Shown here: positions 4,931 to 58,478 of the stretch, piece by piece | How positions within the stretch are numbered: the stretch's first letter is position 1 | How the letters are laid out: each line of letters opens with the position of its first letter | NCBI RefSeq assembly: GCF_963921235.1 | Contig: NC_086108.1 | Span: forward strand, 23,002,001 to 23,066,000 | DNA length: 64,000 bases | Reading direction: 5' to 3' | Source of the DNA: Mobula hypostoma | Taxonomy: Eukaryota | Program-made: the position numbers and the translations under genes | Notes under the pieces: generated by a model | What the model saw: only the letters and a program-made list of their open reading frames with translations | Database searches by the model: none | Told to the model about the DNA's origin: nothing

Positions 4931-4955
4931 GGAAGGTAGAATAATCAAGGGGGAG

Positions 4956-5150
4956 TTGATGGGGATGTGATAGGTGAGGTGATGGGGGCCTGATAGGTGA
5001 GGTGATGGGTGTGTGATAGGATAGGTGATGGGGATAGGTGAGGTGATGGGCGTGTGATAGGTGATGGGGATGTGATAGGTGAGGGGGATGTGATAGGTGA
5101 GGTGATGGGCGTGTGATAGGTGAGGTGATAGGGATGTGATAGGTGAGAGG
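4956..5150. repeat. Low-complexity tandem repeat of gtgatag/gtgagg/gtgatggg units
   Basis: Directly visible. Confidence 0.85.
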
Positions 5151-5177
5151 GACGAGCAGAAATATTTGAAGGTATGT

Positions 5178-7219: not shown

Positions 7220-7802
7220 CCATTCATTCCCACTCAATTAGTCTGTCAACCCATCCATCTCTCACTGCTACTTCACTAATTCCTCATTGCCTCAATGAAT
7301 CCCCTTCTTTCCACTCAGTTCCTCCTCACTCCCCCATTGATAGTCCTTTCATGCCCCCCACACTGATCCACTCACTCCCATTCCACTCCCCATCTCTCCC
7401 CCAATCCTCCATTCACTACCCCTCAATCCACCTCACACCCTCCACTGATCCTTTCACTGTTCCCTCCCACAGAACTAATCACTCCCTTCCACTGCTACTC
7501 ATTCCCCTCACTCTCCCTCACTTGCCCCTCGCACCCAACACTGCCCCATTCACTGCCTTCACTACTCTTTTCATTACTCCAGTCAATCCTGCCTTACTCA
7601 GCTCGCCCACCCTTCACTGCCCCTCACTCACCGTTCACTGCCCTTCACTCTCCCTTCACTGCCCCTCACTCACCGTTCACTGCCCTTCACTCTCCCTTCA
7701 CTTCCCCTCTCTCACCCACTCACTCTCCCTCACTCACCATTCACTGCCCCTCACTCACCCTTCACTTCCCCTCACTCTCCCACTCGCTCCCTCACTCGCC
7801 CC
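7220..7802. repeat. C/T/A-rich low-complexity tract that continues at 16787-16950 across the LTR insertion
   Basis: cactc/ccctc-type units on both sides of the 7803-16786 element. Confidence 0.8.
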
Positions 7803-7995
7803 TGTTATGTTACTTCTGTTTAAATGTACTGTGGGTTAACAGTAAAGAATCATATTCTGGAAGAATTAGAGAACTTTTATTTACAGTAATAAACAAACAT
7901 GTCTTAACCCAGCCACGTGCTGGAACATTCTGCAATCCCTCACATGCTCAGTGCTCTGTCCAATCATGTACATCATTGCACGTGATATTACCATA
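7803..7995 (-). repeat. 3' LTR of outer element
   Basis: Aligns end to end with 16595-16786; PPT adjacent at 7996-8008. Confidence 0.92.
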
Positions 7996-8032
7996 TCTTC
8001 CTTTCCTTAAAAAGAAAAACAATTAACGTTAA

Positions 8033-8191
8033 TCAAAACACATCCATATCAGACAACTGAAACTCTGAAGTCGGCTCTTTCTTGAAGTTTTTGCAATTCT
8101 TTCTTAACACTGCTCCCTCCTCTGTTTGGCCCATGTATGATCTGGTCTGTGTCCATGTGTTCCTTTTATCTTGTGTCCTCACTTTGTCTCC
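8033..8191 (-). pseudogene. Gypsy integrase C-terminal tail (outer element)
   Basis: GDKVRTQDKRNTW...RSYMGQTEEGAVLRKN resembles the GDxVR...W...PRSYxVxTExGxxxRRN tail of Gypsy integrases. Confidence 0.7.
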
Positions 8192-8239
8192 TTGTCTTTC
8201 AGACAAACGTTTCCTTCGATCAGTCAATTCATGTTCCAT
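8192..8239 (-). pseudogene. RABEP1: Captured RABEP1-like fragment 2
   Basis: MEHELTDRRKRLSERQ versus recalled rabaptin-5 AEREIADLRRRLSEGQ, which directly follows the region matched by fragment 1. Confidence 0.6.
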
Positions 8240-8367
8240 TTGTAATGAAATACGAATCTTCTTTTCTTCATCTATTCATTCATTAACTGTGTAATCTCTT
8301 TTTTATGCTGAGACTTCATCATTTCAATAATTCTTCTCAATTCCTTCACCTGTGCTTTCAGTTCTTC
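8234..8367 (-). pseudogene. SH3KBP1: Captured SH3KBP1 (CIN85)-like C-terminal coiled coil
   Basis: EELKAQVKELRRIIEMMKSQHKKEITQLMNE[1-nt frameshift]DEEKKIRISLQME versus recalled CIN85 [45 protein letters not shown]. Confidence 0.85.
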
Positions 8368-8643
8368 CTTATACTGTGCCCACTGTGAGCGTTCTTGCTC
8401 TAGACGGTGATGAAACTGAATCTCATATTCTCTCAGTGTCTCTTTCATTATCGCTTGCATTGAAGCAACCTCCTCCTGCCATTGCTTTTTCACATCATCA
8501 GTTGCCTCCTGTTTGGTCGTCCCAGACACTGCAGCTACTGCTTTTATATTCCCCATGTCAGCATTTGCCTCCATGAGCTGGAGCTACAGTCGAGTGACAT
8601 CACCTTCTGCCGACTGTGATGCAACATTCTGTCACTTCAGCTC
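8365..8643 (-). pseudogene. RABEP1: Captured RABEP1 (rabaptin-5)-like N-terminal coiled coil, fragment 1
   Basis: ELK*QNVASQSAEGDVTRL*LQLMEANADMGNIKAVAAVSGTTKQEATDDVKKQWQEEVASMQAIMKETLREYEIQFHHRLEQERSQWAQYKE versus recalled human DLKRQNAVLQAAQDDLGHLRTQLWEAQAEMENIKAIATVSENTKQEAIDEVKRQWREEVASLQAVMKETVRDYEHQFHLRLEQERTQWAQYRE. Confidence 0.9.
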
Positions 8644-8948
8644 TGTGTCACTATCCAGGACAAAAATTCTTTTCACCAAATTAAGTCTTTCACAGGCAGA
8701 TAAACCCAGAATTGACTGTACATTTTTTGGCACAACCACAAATGAAGGTGTATGCACAACATTTTTGTGTGATACCTTTACCACATATTTTCCTTTAACT
8801 GGAATGTCTGCACCTGAATACCCAGTCACTTTTGTATTTGTCTGATGTAACTTTGGTCTTGGCTTTAAAGAATTAAACTCAAATTCTGCAAGAACATTTA
8901 CACCACTATCAAGTTTAAACAGAATATTGTTTTGATTCACTTTCAATG
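8644..8948 (-). pseudogene. Retrotransposon aspartic protease (outer element)
   Basis: FKLDSG...TGYSG...SILGLSACERLNLVKRI; joins in frame to gag DWTIPL|KVNQ once the nested element and one TSD copy are removed. Confidence 0.85.
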
Positions 8949-10048
8949 TGTCACATGTCCAGTAACAATGAAAATAGAATTGAGTCAGGTTTTATAAACA
9001 AACATAAACATTTATTAAACTCTGCTCAACAATAGCGAAAAGTATTCAAACGACTAACTTAACTGGAAGTTAACTGCTGCACAGCAACTCTGGAACAGTT
9101 CTTAAAGTGGTAAATTCGCACACAGTCTTAAAGTGGTAAATTTGAAAGTCCAAGTGATGTATACAGTCAGTAAGGAGTGACTTCTCTGGAAATAGATTTC
9201 TTTGAAGACATGACATTACTGCTGGTCCTGTCCAGAGGATTCATGATGAAGGAAATAAAATGGCTTAAAGCAAATGACCTTTGTCCTGGATGGTGAACAT
9301 TGCACAAACCTTCCTGATCTTGCAGGAGTTATCTCAGACGCAGGCCACTATTCCTGAAAGAAGATTCAATAAGGTCGATCCTTTATGAAACCACTGAACA
9401 ACACCAACTTTACTCAATCCTTCGGGTTCCCGTACGTTGGTAAGGTCTTCACTCTCCAATACTAGACTGTAAAGGTAAATCAAAGGTACACCAAACAAAA
9501 AGTGGCAGCGATTGGCGAAACTGCTGGTACAACGTTTGTACCTTACAATAGAAAGTAAAAACTCCACTTTAAAATGAAACTGCGTTATGAAATGAATATG
9601 CAGCAAAACTAGCTAATGAATTGACTGATGAACTAACTGCGTAACAACAGGCGTTTACCGTTATATACCTGTTGGGAACACGGCATCCCGTGTCCTTACA
9701 CCAGAGGGAAAAGTACATCATGTGACCTCACACCAGCAGGAAAATTACATCACCCCACCATCACAAGACAATTACATCATGCTCACAAGATACTCAATTA
9801 TATCATGGTCATAAGACAGTCACGAGATACCCACGAGGTATGTAACACCTCCCTCCAAAAAGGGAAAATTTTGGTCTTTTATGAGCAAAATGTTAACAAC
9901 TAACTATTTACAAAAAAAATTACAGATGTATAAAATCTACAACATACACAATATACACAGTATTATCATACAGCACTTTACAAACTAATACCCAGTAGCA
10001 GTGTTACAAATATTAAAATACCACTCCAAAAAAAATTACATTGTACAT

Positions 10049-11300
10049 TCAACATCTAGATAGACAGTCAGCAAACACATTATCTTTACCTTTAATATGA
10101 GTTATCAAAATATTACCCTCCTGTAACATCAAACTCGAATTCAGTAACCTTCTATTTTTGTTTTTCATCTTACTCAAAAACACTAATGGATTATGATCAG
10201 TGTAAACTATGAGTGGTTTCTGAGTTGTACCAACATACACATCAAAATGTTGTAACGCCAAAACAAGGGATAATAATTCCTTTTCTATAGTTGAATAATT
10301 TCTTTGATGCAATTTAAATTTCTTAGAAAAGTAAGCTACTGGATGATCAGCCTCATCACCCTCATCCCTTTGGAGTAACACTGCTCCTGTGGCCTCATCA
10401 CTAGCATCTACAGCTAATGAAAATGGTTTTTCAAAGTCAGGTGACCTGAGCACAGGTTGATGACATAGCATAGTTTTCAATTTATCAAATGCCTCCCGAC
10501 AAGGCTCTGTCCAAACAAACTTTTCATTTTTCTTCAAGAGGTTAGTTAACGGAAGGGCAAAGTCAGCAAAATTCTTACAAAATTTGTGGTAATATCCTAC
10601 CATTCCCACGAATCTTCTAAGAATCTTTTTACCAGTTGGAGTGGGTACCTCTAAAATTGCCCGAACTTTTGCCTGAACAGGAGCTAACTTACCTTAACCC
10701 ACAATATAACCAAGGTAGGTCACAGTGGCATGCCCAAATTCACTTTTAGCTAAGTTAATAGTTAAGTTAGCTTTTGAAAGCCTTTCAAATAGTTTCTCCA
10801 CTGCAGTAATATGTGCTTCCCAAATATAATTTCCTGTAACTAAATCATCAATATAGGCATCTGTATCTTTTAACCCATGAATCACAGAATTAATCATCCA
10901 CTGGAAAGTACCTGGTGCATTCTTCATCCCAAAGGGAAGAACATTATATTCCTATAACCCAGATGGGGTTACAAATGCAGAAATATCTCTAACCTCTATC
11001 CGTCAATGGAACACACCAATAACCTTTTAACAGATCAATCTTTGTAAGGAACTTTGCTTTTTCAACTTTGTCCACACAATCATCCACTCTAGGGATAGGA
11101 TATGCATCAGTTGTTGTCACAGCATTCACCTTCCTGTAATCAGTACAAAACCGAATACTACTGTCTGGCTTAGGCACCATAACGCACCTGAACTCCAATT
11201 CGAATTAAAAGATCTAATAATATTATTCTCTAACATATACTTAATTTCTTGTTCAGCAAGTTCACATTTTTCCATGTTCATCCGATATGGATGTTGCTTT
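10049..11300 (-). pseudogene. RT and RNase H of Gmr1-like element (frameshifted)
   Basis: RFCTDYRKVN, KIDLLKGYW, MKNAPGTFQ, AYIDDL, AVDASD, YTDHNPL, DNVFADCLSR. Confidence 0.93.
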
Positions 11301-11337
11301 ATGGGTTTGGCATCTCCAACATCTAAATCATGTGAAG

Positions 11338-12889
11338 CTACTGTGGTTCTTTTAGGAATGTCTGGAAATATATGCCTATATTTAAAAATAATTGCTTCAT
11401 CTGCTGCCTCTGCTCTAGCTGTAAATGAGCTAATTTCTCATCAATATTTTCCAGAATTGTTGAGTTTGGTAACCCGGCAGAAATAATGTTGGGTTTAGTA
11501 TGAGTTTCAGATGAATCATCCATCAAGTTCCTAGTGGGATCAGACTCATTATTGTTGACCACAGCAGTCATAGTAGCGGACTGTTTCTCACAATATGGTT
11601 TTATCATATTTATTTGACAAAGCTGTGCTGTCCTTCTTCGATCTGGTGTTTTTATCACATAATCCACATCATTAACTTTAGATATAACCTCATAAGGACC
11701 ATGAAATTTAGCTTGAAAAGGGTTTGTTTGCGGCGGGAAAAGAACCAACATCTTATCTCCAGGCTTAAATGACCTCATTTTAGCTTCCTTATCATATCAA
11801 GTTTTCATTTTCTTCTGAGCCGATTTTAAATTTTCCCTGGCTAAGCTGCAAGCTTTATGTAATCTTTCTTTAAATTTTAAAACATAATCCAGCAAGTTAG
11901 TATGTACCTCTTTATTAATCCACTGTTCTTTTAACAAGGCCAAAGGTCCTCTAACTCTATGCCCAAACACAAGTTTAAAAGGACTAAAACCTAAAGATTC
12001 CTGCACTGACTCCCATACTGCAATCAGAAGTAAATGTACGCCCTCATCCCAATCGTTTTCATTTTCCACGCAATACGTCCTAATCATGATTTTGAGGGTA
12101 GAATGGAACCTCTCCAAGGCTCCTTGCGATTCTGGGTGGTATGCAGATGAGGTAATCTGTTTGGCTCCCAGTTTATAAACTATCTGCTGGAACAATCCAG
12201 ACATAAAATTGCTACCTTGACCAGATTGTACTTCCTTAGGCAATCCAAAATAAGTAAAGAATTCTATAAGAGCCTTTATTACAGTTTTAGCCATTATATT
12301 CCTGAGTGGCATTGCCTCTGGAAACCTAGAAGCTGTGCACATGATGGTCAGCAAATATTGATAGCGCGCTTTAATTTTTGGCAAAGGGCCCACACAATCT
12401 ACAATAATTTTGGAAAACGGTTCACCAAATGTAGGAATAGGTTGCAGTGGGGCCACTGGAGTAACTTGATTAGGTTTACCCACAATTTGACAAGTATGAC
12501 ACGTTCTGCAAAATGTCGCCACATCTTTTCTTAAACCAGGCCAGTGAAAATGTTTAAAAACCTTGTTCACAGTTTTCTTCACACCTCGATGGCCACTCAA
12601 TGGCATACTATGAGCCAAAGTTAAAATCTCATTCTGATAAACTTTAGGAACTACTACCTGGCGAACAACCTCCCGTTCCTCACTTGCACTTCCTTGCACT
12701 TGATCTCCACTTCCTCGTTAATACTCCCTTCCCAAAACAATATCCTACTGGCACCTTGTCAATTTCACTATCCAGAAGAGCTTGTTCCTTTAATTTGTTA
12801 ATCTCAGGGTCTCTACTCTGCTCTCCTATCATCCTTCTGAAATAGAGACAAATCTTCATGGTCAGACTTACTACAATAATCTTGATCAA
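11338..12889 (-). pseudogene. Integrase of Gmr1-like element
   Basis: HHCC finger (AHSMPLSGHRG...CRTCHTC), IVDCVGPLP, QSGQGSNF (second D mutated), ALERFH, C-terminal FHGPYEV. Confidence 0.93.
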
Positions 12890-13085
12890 ACAATGAAGGT
12901 AAGAAAGTTTCTGTCACATCCTCAAGATTCGAGTCCCGAGTTGAACAGTCATGGGTAGCAGACCCATCCTGCAGATCAATCTTTTTAGCCATAGCTCAGG
13001 TTATAACACAGGAGAAATCCATGTTAGAATCCATCTTTGGTTCCTCAGAGGTGGGCTTTATTGTCAAATGCACTTCAGGAAAAAC

Positions 13086-14625
13086 TTATCCATCTGCTAA
13101 GTCATTTCCTAACAATAGAGAAACATCATTCACGGGTAAACTGGGTTGTAGTCCTACTTTAACAAGTCCTATAACTAACCCTGACCTTAAATTTACCTTA
13201 TGCAAATGTACAGACATAAGGGCACTCCCAACACCTCGTATATAGTTTACCTCACCAATGTCAGACTCATCACTAAACTTTAGAACACTGTCTAACATTA
13301 GTGACTGAGAAGCTCCAGTATCCCTAAGGATTTTTATTGGCACCGGAGTGGATCCCTCTTTCAAGGATACAAATCCTTCGGTTATAAAATGATCATATCC
13401 CCTCTTAACTTGGTCAGACTCTAACAAAGCTTCATTCGAATTTTTCGAACCCTGTGGATTTACAGGTGTTTCAATATGTTGCACACAAGCATCTGGGACT
13501 GCCTCCTTCTCCTTCTCCTTCAATCGGAAACAGTTAGCTATTACGTGACCAGGTTTCTTACAATAATTACAACTAGGGCCAAAATGTCTTTCCTTCACAA
13601 GTTTCCCTTCATCCTTACCTTTTACACTAACTTCTGATTTAATTTCTGGTTTACCTTGACTCTCTGTGCTATTTTTCCTTTTAAAAGTTCTACCTGGAGG
13701 AAATTCACTCTTACAGATTAAAGCATTCTCACCTGCTAATATAGTAAACTCCTTCAATGTAGCAGTGTCCCTCTCATTTAAATATATCCTTCAACAGGGA
13801 TGCTCCTTTTAAATTCCTCCATTAAAATCTTTTAATTTATTATTCTCCCCATTCACAATTTTAGAGGAAACCCGTCGCTCAAAACACACAGATTTATCGT
13901 AGGCAAATTCCACGTAAGTTTTTTCTATGGATTTCTTCAAATTTCTGAATCTTTCTCTATAAGCTTCCAGAACCGGTTCATACGCTTTCAGTATCTGCTG
14001 CTTCACAATATCATAATCAAGTGCTTGCTCAGCAGTTAAATCTGTGTAAGCTTGTTGTGCCTTACCTTTATTTACACTTTATAACATTACTGGCCATTTA
14101 TTTTTTGGCCACCCTGAAATCAGAGCAGTAGTTTTGAAATGCTGGAAATATTTATCCACTTCTGTCTCATTAAATGGAGGAGCCAATATAACTTCCTGAC
14201 TAGCAACAAACGGTTTCCTAAAACCAGAGGACTGATTCTCGTACTTTAATTTCTCCAGCGCTAGCTCAAACTCCCTCTTTTTATCTGCTTCTCTAGCTTC
14301 AAATTCCCTTATCCTATCGGCTTCTCTTTCGGCCACCTCCGCTTTAAATAATTCCAACTTTATCTGATCAATATGTAATTGCATCTTTAGATTACCCATT
14401 GGAAACAGATCTAACATTTCTTTATCAAAATCACCCGAATTTATAATATTCTGCTATTTTCTTCTGAATTACTGGCTTTGTTGTAACCTTCAAAATTCCT
14501 TTATGGTCCAACCTTCTAGCAATCTCAGATACATCATTCTTTTTCGCCTTTGCTAATACCTCCGGGTTTGGCGTTGCCATAAACTCGTCAATATTCATTG
14601 CTGCCGAATACCACCCACGGACCAA
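13086..14625 (-). pseudogene. gag (SCAN-like, CCHC) and protease of Gmr1-like element
   Basis: ILKAYEPVLEAYRERFRNL, CNYCKKPGHVIANC, ILRDTGASQS, LLLGNDLA. Confidence 0.88.
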
Positions 14626-15621
14626 TCAAACAAAAGAATCAGGTATTTCCCTTTTTCAAATCAGATTGATAATTAAACATGCACTTAAGCTCAAAATTGG
14701 AACAACCAGACGAGCCCACAATTTTGTTATGTGGTCAGCAACAGTGAAATATATAATTGAGTCAGATTTTACAAACAAACATAAACATTTATTAAACTCT
14801 GCTGAACAATAGCGAAAAGTATTCAAACAACAAACTTAACCGGAAATTAACTGCTATACGGCAACTCTGGAACAGTTCTTTCAGTGGTAAATTTGCACAT
14901 AGTCTCAAAGTGGTAAAATTGAAAGTCCAAGTGATTTATACAGTCAGTAAGGAGAGACTTCTCTGGAAATGGATTTCTTCGAAGACGTGACGTTACTGCT
15001 GGTCCTGTTCAAAGGATTCACGACGAAAGAAATAGAACGGCTTAAAGAAACTGATCTTTTTCCTGGATGGTGAACACTGCACAAACCTTCCTGATCTTGC
15101 AGGAGTTATCTCAGACGCAGGCCACTATTCCTGAACAAAGATTCAATAAGGTTGGCCCTTTATGAAACTGCCGAATGACAGCAACTTTACTCAATCCTTT
15201 GGGTTCCTGTACTTTGGTAAGGTCTTCACTCTCCAATAGTAGACTGTAAAGGTAAATCAAAGGTACACCAAACAAAAACTGGCAGCGATTGGCGAAACTG
15301 CCGATACAACGTTTGTACCTTACAATAGAAAGTAAAAACTCCACTTTAAAATGAAACTGCGTCCTGAAACGAATACGCAGCAAAACAACTAACGAATTGA
15401 CTGATGAACTAACTGCGTAACAACAGGGGTTTCCTGTTATATACCTGTTGGGAGCATGCCATCATGTGACCTTACACTGGCGGCAAAGTACGTCATGTAA
15501 CCTCACACCGGCAGGAAAATTACATCACCCCACCATCACAAGAGAATTACATCATGCTCACAAGATACTCAATAACATCATGTCATAAGACAGTCACAAG
15601 ATACCCACGAGGTATGTAACA

Positions 15622-16563
15622 CAACGGAATAGTCCAGTCATTCTTACTTTGTTTATTTTCACAAAGCACATCTATATAAAATTCCTCACGTTCATCTTCA
15701 AACACAGCATTTACTTGTTTCATTTTATTTTCCTTCTTTCTACTTTTACAACAGCGTGAAAAATGAGTAATCTTACTGCAGATATTGCAAATTTTGCCAT
15801 ATGCGGGACCTTGATTTGGACAATGTTCCCGCGCACAGCAATCATATAACCTTTTTCCTTCCAATGTCGTCTTGCTCTCTGTTGGTTTCATCGACTTATT
15901 ATTATATTTCTTGATGTATTCGTGCTTTTTTACAGTGTTTACATTGCAGTTTTCGATAAAAAGCTCTTCAGTCTGCAACGTCACAGTCTCAGAAGCTTTG
16001 CAAAGTGCCATATCTTTTGCAAAATTTAAATCTTGCTCTCTCAACAGTCTTTCTCTCAGAGCATTATCTCAATGCCACAGACAAGTCTATCTTTAATGAG
16101 AGAGTCCGTGAGCAATCCAAACTCGCATGTTCTACTACACTTTCTTAACTCAGTAACATACTGATCAATTGTTTCAGCAACTCTCTGCGCACATGTGAAG
16201 AATTTATATCGCTCATACGTTAAATTACGCTTAGGTATACAAAACACTTCAAATCTGTCCATTATCAACTTTAAATTAAAATTATCTCCATCTTCAAAGA
16301 CAAAATTATTATATACCTCTACTGCGTCATTCCCAATTACATAGAGCAAAAGCGCAGGTTTGTTTTTTTTCCGATTTTTCTTCATAATCGATCACCGATA
16401 AGTACAGTTCAAACTGTGGCTTGAATATCCTTCAATTCTCGGCTACATTGCCAGTCAGCTGCAATTTTGGTGGGAGTTGTAAACTTTCGATTTTACCGTT
16501 TACAGTTCGAACTGTTTTTTTCTTCTTTCTTTTTTTGATTATCTTCGATACTCGATTCTCCCA
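15622..16563 (-). pseudogene. gag of outer LTR element (frameshifted)
   Basis: LQLTGNVAEN*RIFKPQFELYL, PKRNLTYERYKFF, LIKDRLVCGI, PAYGKICNICSKITHFSRCC. Confidence 0.88.
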
Positions 16564-16579
16564 TATTATTCTTCCAGAA

Positions 16580-16594
16580 CCACTTCTGACACCA
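16580..16594 (-). promoter_or_regulatory. Primer-binding site complementary to tRNA-Leu 3' end
   Basis: tggtgtcagaagtgg directly after the 5' LTR; complementary to recalled ...CCACUUCUGACACCA. Confidence 0.8.
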
Positions 16595-16786
16595 TGTTAT
16601 GTTACTTCTGTTTAAACGTACCGTGGGTTAACAGTAAAGAATCATATTCTGGAAGAATTAGAGAACTTTTATTTGCAGTAATAAACAAACACGTCTTAAC
16701 CCAGCCACGTGCTGGACATTCTGCAATCTCGCGTATGCTCAGTGCTCTGTCCAATCATGTACTGGCATATCATTGATATCACCACA
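16595..16786 (-). repeat. 5' LTR of outer element
   Basis: TG...CA termini; matches 7803-7995. Confidence 0.92.
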
Positions 16787-16967
16787 GCCCCCTCACCGTT
16801 CTCTTGTACCTTTAATTGCCCTAGTCACACTCTCCTCTCTGGTCTCTACTCCTCACATTATACACTACTCCCTCAACCTTCCTCCTCTCAGCTCACTCCC
16901 CTCATTCTCCCCACTCCCCATGCGCTGCACCACTTGTTGCCTCATTCACTGTTGCTGCACCAAGTCA

Positions 16968-17719: not shown

Positions 17720-18116
17720 GTGAGAGACAAAGAAGCAAAGACTTTTTCCTTTCATTCATGCCTTTTACTCAGACATTGGTCCCTGAGAGAATATTGTTGG
17801 GCTTTGGATTAGTCCCATTCTCCCACAGTGCTACATGATGGGAATTGCTAGGAGCTTTTTCCAGCCACGTTCTTGTAGCACTGATAGATTTCTGAGTGGA
17901 GGTTGGTGTAATACAGCAGCACGTTCAGTGCATTTGACCATGTTCAGTGTGCACTCCACAAGGTAGTTGCTGCACACTGTAACAAAGAGAGCGGACCCTA
18001 CAGTACTGATAATGCATTCTGCAGTACATTTGGCATACATTCCAACTGTGCAGTGTAGATGACATGTACTGCACATGAACTACGGTGAAAATGGTGCACA
18101 CAGTGTGCATTTGTTG

Positions 18117-18409
18117 TAATGCAGCGTGGTTAATACGTAGTGCGCACATAATACATAACGCAGTGTGGTTAATACGTAGTGCGCACATAACACATAACGC
18201 AGCGTGGTTAATACGTAGTGCGCACATAATACATAACGCAGCGTGGTTAATACGTAGTGCGCACATAACCCATAACGCAGCGTGGTTAATACGTAGTGCG
18301 CACATAACCCATAACGCAGCGTGGTTAATACGTAGTGCGCACATAACGCATAACGCAGCGTGGTTAATACGTAGTGCGCACATAACACATAACGCAGTGT
18401 GGTTAATAC
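18117..18409. repeat. 39-bp minisatellite, about 7.5 copies
   Basis: Unit taacgcagcgtggttaatacgtagtgcgcacataacaca, near-identical copies. Confidence 0.95.
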
Positions 18410-18804
18410 TATAATGGAGACGGTGAGCTCAGCAACCTTAGTACACCGGAGAGGGGACAGCAGTGGGGGTGGGGGGAACTAACCGAAGGAGAGCTAACCA
18501 GACAAGCTGCTTTGTCCTGGATCCTGCCAATCTTCTGTTGTGAGAGGTGCTCACTCAGCTGAGTTGAGGGAGGGATTTCCTCTCACACTCAAAGACTGAG
18601 AATAAGAAGTCCTGACATTAATGATTGTACCTCATTAATAAATCAGCCACCAGACTAATCATGTCAAATACATCAGGCTGTTCCCAAAGGTTGCATTAAT
18701 ATTTGTTCTTCTGAGTGTAACAAACTGCCAAATGGAAACCATGTCCAGAGGCATTATTGCTATATGGATATTTACTAGTTAAATTTTAATTATTTTTATA
18801 CTTT

Positions 18805-56616: not shown

Positions 56617-57525
56617 GTAAAAACGTAGAGACTGCTGGGAAAAAAACTCAGCTGGTCAGGTGGCATCTGTCAATAGGAAGGACCAGCCTGAATATGCGAC
56701 CTTCCTCTCACATGAGTCAGTCAATCAACTACTCTCATTAAAATAGACACCCTTCAATTGTTTCACCAGTAATGAGGAGCATCTTGGGACATCCAAAGAA
56801 CTAGGTGCAATGAGAAATCAAGTTCTTTTTGAAAATTTTAATAATTTGTTTTACAATTTGAGAAACCCTGAGCATTGCTTTGAGATCTGCTGTCAGGATA
56901 AGGCTTTTCATTCCAGGACGAGGGAGATGTCCTCCTTTTTTAAAGAAAGGGGCTTCCCTTCCTCTACCATCAACTCTGCTCTCAAACACATCTCTCCCAT
57001 TTCACGCACATCTGCTCTCACCCCATCCTCCCGCCCCCACCCCCCCACTAGGGATAGGGTTCCCCTGGTCCTCACCTACCACCCCATCAACCTCCAGGTC
57101 CAACATATTATTCTCCGTAACTTCCGCCACCTCCAACGGGATCCCACCAATAAGCACATCTTTCCCTCCCCCGCCTTTCAGTTTCGACAGGGATCGCTCC
57201 CTGCATGACTCCCTTGTCCATTCATCCCCCCATCCCTCCCCACTGATCTCCCTCCTGGCACTTATCCTTGTAGCAGAACAAATGCTACACATGCCCTTAC
57301 ACTTCTTCCCTCACCACCATTCAGGGCCCCAGACAGTCCTTCCAGGTGAGGTGACACTTCCCCTGTGAGTCGGCTGGGGTGGTATACTGCGTCTGGTGCT
57401 CTCGATGCGGCCTTCTATATATTGGCAAGACCCGATGCAGACTGGGAGACTGTTTCACTGAACACCTACGCTCTGTCCGCCAGAGGAAGCAGGATCTCCC
57501 AGTGGCCACACATTTTAATTCCATG

Positions 57526-57824
57526 CAAACAACAGGAATTCTGCAGATGCTGGAAATTCAAGCAACACACATCAAAGTTGCTGGTGAACGCAGCAGGCCA
57601 AGCAGCATCTATAGGAAGAGGCGCGGTCGACGTTTCAGGCCGAGACCCTTCGTCAGGACTAACTGAAGGAAGAGTGAGTAAGGGATTTGAAAGCTTTCAA
57701 ATCCCTTACTCACTCTTCCTTCAGTTAGTCCTGACGAAGGGTCTCGGCCTGAAACGTCGACTGCGCCTCTTCCTATAGATGCTGCTTGGCCTGCTGCGTT
57801 CACCAGCAACTTTGATGTGTGTTG
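57526..57824. mobile_element. PLE pLTR fold-back insertion nested in the GIY-YIG region
   Basis: 131-bp inverted arms 57563-57693/57694-57824 with no spacer (1 mismatch seen); 37-bp tail; 13-bp TSD ttttaattccatg at 57513-57525 and 57825-57837. Confidence 0.92.
57727..57762 (+). ncRNA. Minimal type I hammerhead ribozyme (mirror copy on minus strand 57625-57660)
   Basis: agtc CTGACGA agg-gtctcgg-cct GAAA c GTC gact. Confidence 0.75.
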
Positions 57825-58478
57825 TTTTAATTCCATGTCCCATTCCCATTCTGATATGTCAATCCCTGGCCTCCTCTACTGTCAAGGTGAAGCCACACTC
57901 AGGTTGGAGGAACAACACCTGCTATTCCGTCTGGGTAGCCTCCAACCTGATGGCATGAACATTGACTTCTCTACCTTCCGTTAATGCCCCTCCTCCCCTT
58001 CTTATCCCATCTCTTATTTATTTATTCATTCCCACCTACTTTTTCTCTCTCTCTCTTTTCTCTCTCTGTCCCTCTCACAATCACTCCTTGCCTGCTCTCC
58101 ATCTTCCTCTGGGCTCCCCTCCCTCTTTCTTTCTCCCTAGGCCTCCCGTCCCATGATCCTCCCCCTTCTCCAGCTCTGTATCCCTTTTGCCAATCAACTT
58201 TCCAGCTCTTAGCTTCATCCATCCCCCTCCTGTCTTCTCCTATCATTTCTGATCTCCCCCTCCCTCTCCCACTTTCAAATCTCTTACTATCTCTTCTTTC
58301 AGTTAGTCCTGACGAAGGGTCTCAGCACGAAACGTTGACTGTACCTCTTCCTATAGATGCTGCCTGACCTGCTGTGTTCTCCAGCATTTTTTGTGTGTTG
58401 CATGTTCTTTGGGTTAGCACTGTTTTTCCACTCCAAGGTTTAAATCATTGAATTTAATGAGCCTCTTTTCGTCCTTAG

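Follow-up and report, generated by a model that had tools for sequence, protein, structure and literature searches.

How did parts of the host genes RABEP1 and SH3KBP1 (CIN85) come to lie in frame inside a retrotransposon of Mobula hypostoma, and was their reading frame kept by selection? The sequence belongs to a minus-strand element in a 64,000-nt stretch of DNA (the window), for which an initial annotation had proposed capture of spliced RNA by template switching at short microhomologies.

Layout and state of the outer element

Two LTR elements are nested at this locus, and the host-derived pieces belong to the outer one:

7803-16786, minus strand: outer element, a dead non-autonomous Gypsy LTR element (Pfam, protein and contig comparison)
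16595..16786, minus strand: 5' LTR of the outer element, 192 nt, TG...CA (LTR alignment)
7803..7995, minus strand: 3' LTR of the outer element, 193 nt (LTR alignment)
7798-7802 and 16787-16791: target duplication of the outer element, identical 5 bp flanking both LTRs
16577..16594, minus strand: primer binding site, starting TGG right behind the 5' LTR
7996..8008, minus strand: polypurine tract, adjoining the 3' LTR
15627..16482, minus strand: gag with frameshifts, extending into the first protease residues (tblastn with P0140 and P0002)
8641..8948, minus strand: outer-element aspartyl protease, reaching the beginning of the protease-RT linker
8033..8188, minus strand: integrase C-terminal tail (GDKV...RSY...GAVLR), stop at 8035-8033 (compared with the tails of P0140, P0282 and P0171)
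8949..15621, minus strand: nested, unrelated Gypsy element with RT-RNase H and integrase, inserted at the start of the outer protease
14725-15621 and 8949-9847, minus strand: LTRs of the nested element, about 898 nt, 9.6% apart

The outer element reads gag-protease, RABEP1 piece, SH3KBP1 piece, RABEP1 piece and integrase tail, in that order. RT, RNase H and the integrase core are missing, and 460 nt of host-derived sequence plus the short integrase tail stand in their place. Pfam matched the protease to Asp_protease_2 at E 0.008, which is below the cut-off. Its identity was 83% to the Hemitrygon protein P0136 and only 52% to the best full polyprotein, which ranked after three chimeras; this protein, P0140, is a single ORF of the order protease-RT-RNase H-integrase and matches the outer gag and protease. 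None of 216 candidates passed as a longer relative of the protease region (0/216), weak evidence on whether a close autonomous parent protein exists. The LTRs, the primer site (which we take to be of the tRNA-Leu type), the polypurine tract and the short target duplication are all Ty3/Gypsy marks. Judged from these marks and from the domain order of P0140, the RT itself being absent here, the outer element most likely derives from a single-ORF Ty3/Gypsy-type retrotransposon.

The copy has decayed. Its LTRs differ by 15 mismatches over 191 aligned bases (7.9%), and the 3' LTR begins with TA, not TG. Frameshifts in gag, the nested insertion, and two stops and one frameshift in the cargo set it apart from a functional chimeric gene. 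Compared with the sister family described below, the integrase tail has also suffered an apparent in-frame internal loss near 8147, as seen from contig loose ends at 8145 and from P0136. The nested element is flanked by a 5-bp target duplication with one mismatch. The divergence of the two LTR pairs (outer, 0.079 ± 0.019; inner, 0.096 ± 0.010) does not distinguish the order of insertion. The LTRs of the nested element are unusually long and no more alike than the outer pair, and both insertions look close in time.

The surroundings are rich in other repeats. A minisatellite of 21-nt units (7593-7804) abuts the 3' end of the outer element, and further minisatellites lie at 18039-18448 (39-nt units) and 4931-5166 (23-nt units). 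SINE-like repeats form head-to-head or tail-to-tail palindromes at 1002-1232 and 57523-57832, with arms of 93 and 139 nt that are 98-99% complementary and spaced by 0-1 nt.

Captured pieces, missing introns and junction overlaps

Three host-derived pieces were delimited, all in sense orientation relative to the outer element and surrounded by neither a poly(A) tail nor a separate target duplication:

8364..8644, minus strand: RABEP1 piece a, exon 3 almost complete plus the beginning of exon 4, coiled coil
8234..8367, minus strand: SH3KBP1 (CIN85) C-terminal coiled-coil piece (PDB 5abs/2n64 and ray proteins)
8189..8233, minus strand: RABEP1 piece b, resuming at the end of piece a with one host base lost

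The RABEP1 sequence was identified by Pfam (PF03528, E 5.6e-36). Of its 93 residues, 86 are identical in Mobula RABEP1, 85 in Hemitrygon, 83 in Pristis, 82 in Narcine, 81 in the white shark, 77 in the skate and 67 in the chimaera. The SH3KBP1 piece matched a 2,195-nt contig of run X16 over 94 nt with 4 differences.

The joins are protease to RABEP1 (J1), RABEP1 to SH3KBP1 (J2), SH3KBP1 to RABEP1 (J3) and RABEP1 to integrase tail (J4). A single minus-strand frame spans the protease, piece a of RABEP1 and the opening 31 residues of SH3KBP1; a one-base frameshift follows near 8274-8273, and beyond it the remaining SH3KBP1, piece b of RABEP1 and the tail of the integrase are read in one frame to the stop at 8035-8033. 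All four joins of the outer element thus preserve the frame once this lesion is repaired, as the initial annotation had stated. The copy is in frame without being open: RABEP1 piece a is interrupted at 8634-8632 and 8586-8584 by stop codons that, like the gag frameshifts, the initial annotation does not mention.

Both pieces cross exon junctions of their host genes. In SH3KBP1 the LQ/ME junction falls at 8240/8239, where X16 and X18 contigs depart right behind the Q codon into a GT donor; the element has no intron here and continues into the next exon for 6 nt in the outer copy, 12 nt in sibling copies and further in the sister family. No sign of a second SH3KBP1 intron, expected near H-K/K, was seen among the contig rows listed. 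In RABEP1 the MK/E junction falls at 8442/8441, again without an intron in the window. Here the intron is supported by conservation, from the genomic locus of another vertebrate rather than a ray: L001, 1 locus from at least 599 pattern matches in a metagenome collection, holds a 204-nt RABEP1 exon 3 that runs from an AG acceptor to M-K-G and then GT, and it aligns to 8645-8442 without gaps at 139 of 204 identical bases. A 460-nt X18 contig likewise crosses 8442/8441 without an intron and runs into RABEP1 exon 2. The upstream boundary of exon 3 varies among 118 RABEP1 proteins: exon 2 is skipped in 6 of them, one further protein carries an insertion and another is short of one E. Literature listings yielded nothing useful on the exon structure of RABEP1 and SH3KBP1.

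The two intron positions given in the initial annotation are therefore borne out, by the M-K-G/gt exon end of L001 and by the GT donor in X16 and X18. Contigs, the L001 exon alignment and the Mobula RABEP1 comparison agree that the element contains no intron, and neither piece is confined to one exon; single-exon pieces with flanking intronic similarity had been named as the sign of DNA-level capture. Because both introns are absent, the templates of both captured pieces are supported as spliced RNA, in agreement with the earlier suggestion of mRNA templates.

Junction overlaps were read from public contigs aligned to 8020-8800, using 4 of the 24 listed runs (X1, X5, X16 and X18), which represent three organisms. 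The run types are tool guesses (X1 and X5, DNA; X16 and X18, RNA). The contig evidence comprises, among the matches listed, 24 loose ends out of 136, 12 indels out of 23 and 32 pieces out of 1,145. At the junctions the host-side letters come from contigs of other rays, usually a single one in each run.

8641..8644, minus strand: J1 overlap, 4 nt AGAG, shared by the element linker and RABEP1, starting one base inside RABEP1 exon 3
8364..8367, minus strand: J2 overlap, 4 nt GAAG (contigs)
8233..8239, minus strand: J3 overlap, 7 nt AGTGGAA, the V-E codons plus the preceding base in both host genes
8187..8191, minus strand: J4, putative overlap of 2-5 nt, RABEP1 G-E against integrase-tail G-D (proteins only)

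At J1, contigs that continue the linker (E-S-E-Y-S-D-L-M-K, as in P0136) match to 8641 (11 in X1, 4 in X18), and those continuing RABEP1 (A-K-E-E) match up to 8644 (1 each in X16 and X18); the initial annotation had named no shared word at this join. At J2, SH3KBP1 contigs (K-N-Q-D-P-I) join from 8367 (1 in X16, 7 in X1), and RABEP1 contigs (A-V-E-R-E-L) depart at 8364 (1 in X18, 2 in X1, and one X5 joint). The overlap sits in a 12-nt stretch that by eye has 10 matches, where RABEP1 codons for E-A-V-E face SH3KBP1 codons for E-E-V-K. An overlap at J2 had been predicted as the word gaa; it is real, and measures 4 nt rather than 3.

The overlap at J3 is visible only in sibling copies, because the outer copy lost 6 nt (two codons) at this point. 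Siblings carry 6 extra bases behind 8233 (one contig each in X5 and X18), record 4 of X1 exceeds the window sequence by 7 letters, and the Hemitrygon chimera P0001 reads LQMEVEHEL across the join. Ray SH3KBP1 has L-Q-M-E-V-E-G-I here; RABEP1 has K-E-A-V-E-R in Mobula, Hemitrygon, Hypanus and Pristis (Y-K-E-A-V-E-R in myliobatiforms), and A-M-E in Narcine and skates. The word atggaa, earlier taken for the J3 overlap, is consequently an artefact of the later 6-nt loss, since myliobatiform RABEP1 reads A-V-E and the siblings M-E-V-E. On the SH3KBP1 side of J3 the letters may derive from sister elements rather than from mRNA, and they encode the host residues regardless. At J4 the putative overlap is suggested by RABEP1 EGQG-EN (G-E-N) facing the G-D-x-V motif of relatives' integrase tails; no contig row near 8189 was found among the 24 of 136 loose ends listed. 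The claim of microhomology at every junction thus holds by measurement at J1, J2 and J3 and is inferred at J4.

Random joins of these sequences produced overlaps of at least 4 nt in 2.1-2.3% of cases and of at least 7 nt in 0.07-0.08%, giving a joint chance of about 3.5e-7 for the three measured overlaps (4, 4 and 7 nt). Both J1 and J3 fall shortly downstream of a host exon junction, by one base and by 6-12 bases respectively, which may be chance. Later deletions in the outer copy, such as the 6 nt at J3, are located on short repeats.

Related chimeras in other rays

The same chimera was present in 2 of the 120 listed homologues (of 238). P0001 (Hemitrygon) is open across all four joins; P0002 (Hypanus) reads gag-protease-RABEP1-SH3KBP1 and is broken by a frameshift of its own. 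A metagenome scan with P0001 confirmed none of 146 stretches. The best protease match, P0136 (Hemitrygon, 83%), represents a sister family with different cargo: protease, the start of RT, SH3KBP1 and integrase tail, without RABEP1. Its RT start ends in E-V-I-K-K, its SH3KBP1 part is about 125 residues long (E-V-I-K-K to G-I-K-K-A), and its integrase tail enters at a later point (K-A-T-V-L-E-E-V-Q). The sister layout is also found in contigs, as a joint at 8311-8641 (X16), joints at 8146-8234 and 8150-8234 (X5), and 7 X1 contigs with upstream SH3KBP1. The window's class retains more of the integrase tail than the sister class and so needs its own RABEP1-to-integrase join. No class with RABEP1 alone was found among the contigs listed; a single contig that skips SH3KBP1 (X5, joint 8238-8364) may be host exon.

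Further variants were seen. In one sibling layout (8093-8274, X5 and X18 joints), SH3KBP1 near M-N-E is joined to the late integrase tail with 13 letters between. Contigs leave the integrase tail at 8079, 8055 and 8048, which could reflect a longer tail of the parent or another captured piece. The gene model P0011 (Narcine RABEP1 isoform X9) runs from RABEP1 into a LINE-type reverse transcriptase fragment (PF00078).

Three copies of the capture family (P0001, P0002 and P0136, the last with three isoform accessions) are annotated as protein-coding in RefSeq for Hemitrygon and Hypanus, and the family explains the mis-annotated 'RABEP1-like' or 'uncharacterized' stingray genes XP_072880776.1, XP_059819315.1 and XP_072897951.1. 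In a family of large size, chance may be enough to preserve open frames of such length. Summed contig depth reached thousands against 3-25 per contig, with 607 (X1) and 436 (X5) contigs aligned; this hints at many copies, depth being no copy number. The element has W-A, as in myliobatiform RABEP1, where Pristis, Narcine, skates and sharks have W-G; it also has R-E, as do the dasyatid copies, where dasyatid RABEP1 genes have R-D. Capture of RABEP1 in the myliobatiform stem would fit these residues, single sites being weak evidence.

Mechanism, reading frame and known precedents

The structure of the element, the overlaps at J1-J3, the loss of introns, the sister family and the dispersed insertion with its target duplication are observed directly. 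They are best explained, and with considerable confidence, by a reverse transcriptase that switched templates onto spliced host RNA in a Gypsy particle, the product then spreading in trans. Copying element RNA from its 3' end, RT would have switched in the integrase tail to spliced RABEP1 mRNA (J4), copied about 330 nt of it and returned where the protease ends (J1), so that RT, RNase H and the integrase core were lost. In the same or a later round it would have departed RABEP1 at the V-E codons, taken up some 135 nt of SH3KBP1 from a spliced template and re-entered RABEP1 at its point of departure (J3 and J2), at the cost of one RABEP1 base. The SH3KBP1 donor could be host mRNA or, more likely, co-packaged RNA of the sister family that already held SH3KBP1. 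With LTRs, primer site and polypurine tract kept, an autonomous partner could mobilise the product in trans. J2 and J3 are best read as one excursion and return, as both flank a single RABEP1 word (E-A-V-E) from which one base was removed, and RABEP1 capture followed by the SH3KBP1 excursion is the simplest order. The order of events, the donor, the overlap at J4 and the trans-mobilisation are in this sense inferred.

Two rivals dispute the route of capture. Retroviral-type transduction, in which an element donor was spliced to the RABEP1 exon 3 acceptor at J1 and only the 3' join arose by template switching, would account for the position of J1 one base inside exon 3, and the skate model P0015 has a tandem acceptor isoform there. 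However, the linker E-S-E-Y continues past J1 without a GT donor (11 X1 and 4 X18 contigs, and P0136), and it shares 4 nt with RABEP1 at this join. A splice origin of J1 was rejected for want of a donor in the element, leaving this reading hardly credible. DNA-level capture, in which single exons or processed pseudogenes were joined by microhomology-mediated repair, is very unlikely. DNA repair also leaves overlaps of 2-7 nt, so the junction lengths are compatible with it, as is the later 6-nt deletion on short repeats at J3. But capture of single exons is excluded by the exon junctions in both pieces, and a pseudogene donor requires two extra, unobserved loci and leaves the sense orientation, the codon-aligned joins and the exact replacement of the pol core unexplained.

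The preferred template-switching model also bears on why the joins are in frame. At each join the codons of the two parents specify identical or similar residues, and joins keep the frame mainly because shared words are shared codons. Words shared between the parents were in frame in 0.385-0.45 of cases at 4 nt and 0.41-0.47 at 5 nt, against an expected 33%. At 7 nt the share was 0.5-0.7 for RABEP1 pairs and 0.35-0.42 for element against SH3KBP1, values that rest on small counts (for example, 5 words for RABEP1 against SH3KBP1). Four in-frame joins out of four have P 0.040 with this bias, 0.012 without it and 0.09 if J2 and J3 are one event. Of the two causes of frame retention put forward at the outset, the codon-phase bias of microhomology is measured (38-60% against 33%), and selection is at most suggested, at P about 0.04-0.09. 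The bias may perhaps not be the whole cause, as sister joins are in frame too.

The third rival accepts the same capture and adds selection of the lineage for an open Gag-protease-coiled-coil protein. A host oligomerisation domain replacing the RT-integrase part could benefit assembly, protease activation or cis packaging, or the open frame could shield the RNA from decay. The CIN85 coiled coil is a trimer, and both captured pieces are coiled coils. In keeping with such selection, the frame is kept at all four joins (P 0.04 with the bias taken into account) and apparently also through the deletion in the integrase tail; it is kept at both joins of the sister P0136 as well, and at the SH3KBP1-integrase join in one of two X5 contigs, the other having lost one base. 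Against it, J2 and J3 use one RABEP1 word, which raises P to 0.09; P0136 came from a protein search and is in frame by ascertainment; the frame at J4 matters little with a stop within about 50 codons; and the window copy and P0002 are broken. Nor does the SH3KBP1 insertion, which adds a net 43 residues, not a multiple of seven, keep the heptad register; a heptad-preserving insertion was rejected on this ground. The case for selection on an open ORF is suggestive at most, and we regard this rival as doubtful.

A broader scenario, which we consider improbable, is that a ray Gypsy lineage repeatedly swapped its pol core for in-frame host coiled coils because the fusion aided assembly or maturation, with siblings exchanging cargo modules through template switches among co-packaged RNAs. 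Defective gag-onc viruses are helper-dependent and carry host sequence fused to gag. If true, the scenario would be the germ-line analogue of how gag-onc viruses evolve, with selection acting on the element itself. Given many natural copies, the family could show directly whether element-level selection or only codon-phase bias favours the fusion of gag to host sequence in frame.

The mechanism of capture is already known, and the chimera clearly exemplifies this type of copying accident, with no proof of a useful fusion protein. It offers a base-level record of at least six RT switches in a vertebrate germ line, involving a retrotransposon, the mRNAs of two host genes and probably RNAs of sibling elements, and it includes a clean leave-and-return event. 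No description of the ray capture family was found among the titles and abstract openings of the freely accessible literature.

The closest parallel is LTR-mediated retroposition (Tan 2016, Genome Res 26:1663, PMC5131818), described there as the replacement of part of the element ORFs by partial spliced mRNA. Its Drosophila junctions showed microsimilarity in 25 of 29 cases (median 6 bp), one Drosophila family had switches near exon junctions, and chimeras of two or more genes occurred; both LTRs were kept, and secondary spread as non-autonomous elements was described. The ray element shares the discontinuous flanking element parts, intron loss, microsimilarity and both LTRs. In contrast to the young, low-copy cases described there, the ray chimera is old (LTRs 7.9% apart) and occurs in at least three ray genera; it further differs in its A-B-A layout, its frame shared with gag-protease and integrase tail, and its sister family with different cargo. 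Its species set includes no cartilaginous fish (PMC5131818). In the rays, contigs that span a junction are present in runs tentatively classed as RNA, which by itself does not establish co-transcription from the LTR. Among plant elements, maize Bs1, as summarised in PMC13317346, is likewise an LTR element with pieces of several host genes replacing pol; unlike Bs1, which is reported to be transcribed, translated and possibly functional, the ray copy is dead. The non-homologous switching between co-packaged RNAs reported for BARE-2 and Veju in the same source is also comparable. The excursion into SH3KBP1 resembles the retroviral 'deletion with insertion' outlined in PMC3187697, where RT departs its template, copies another RNA and returns. 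In contrast to the retroviral cases, the ray element is a germ-line Gypsy without env and without evidence of a host phenotype.
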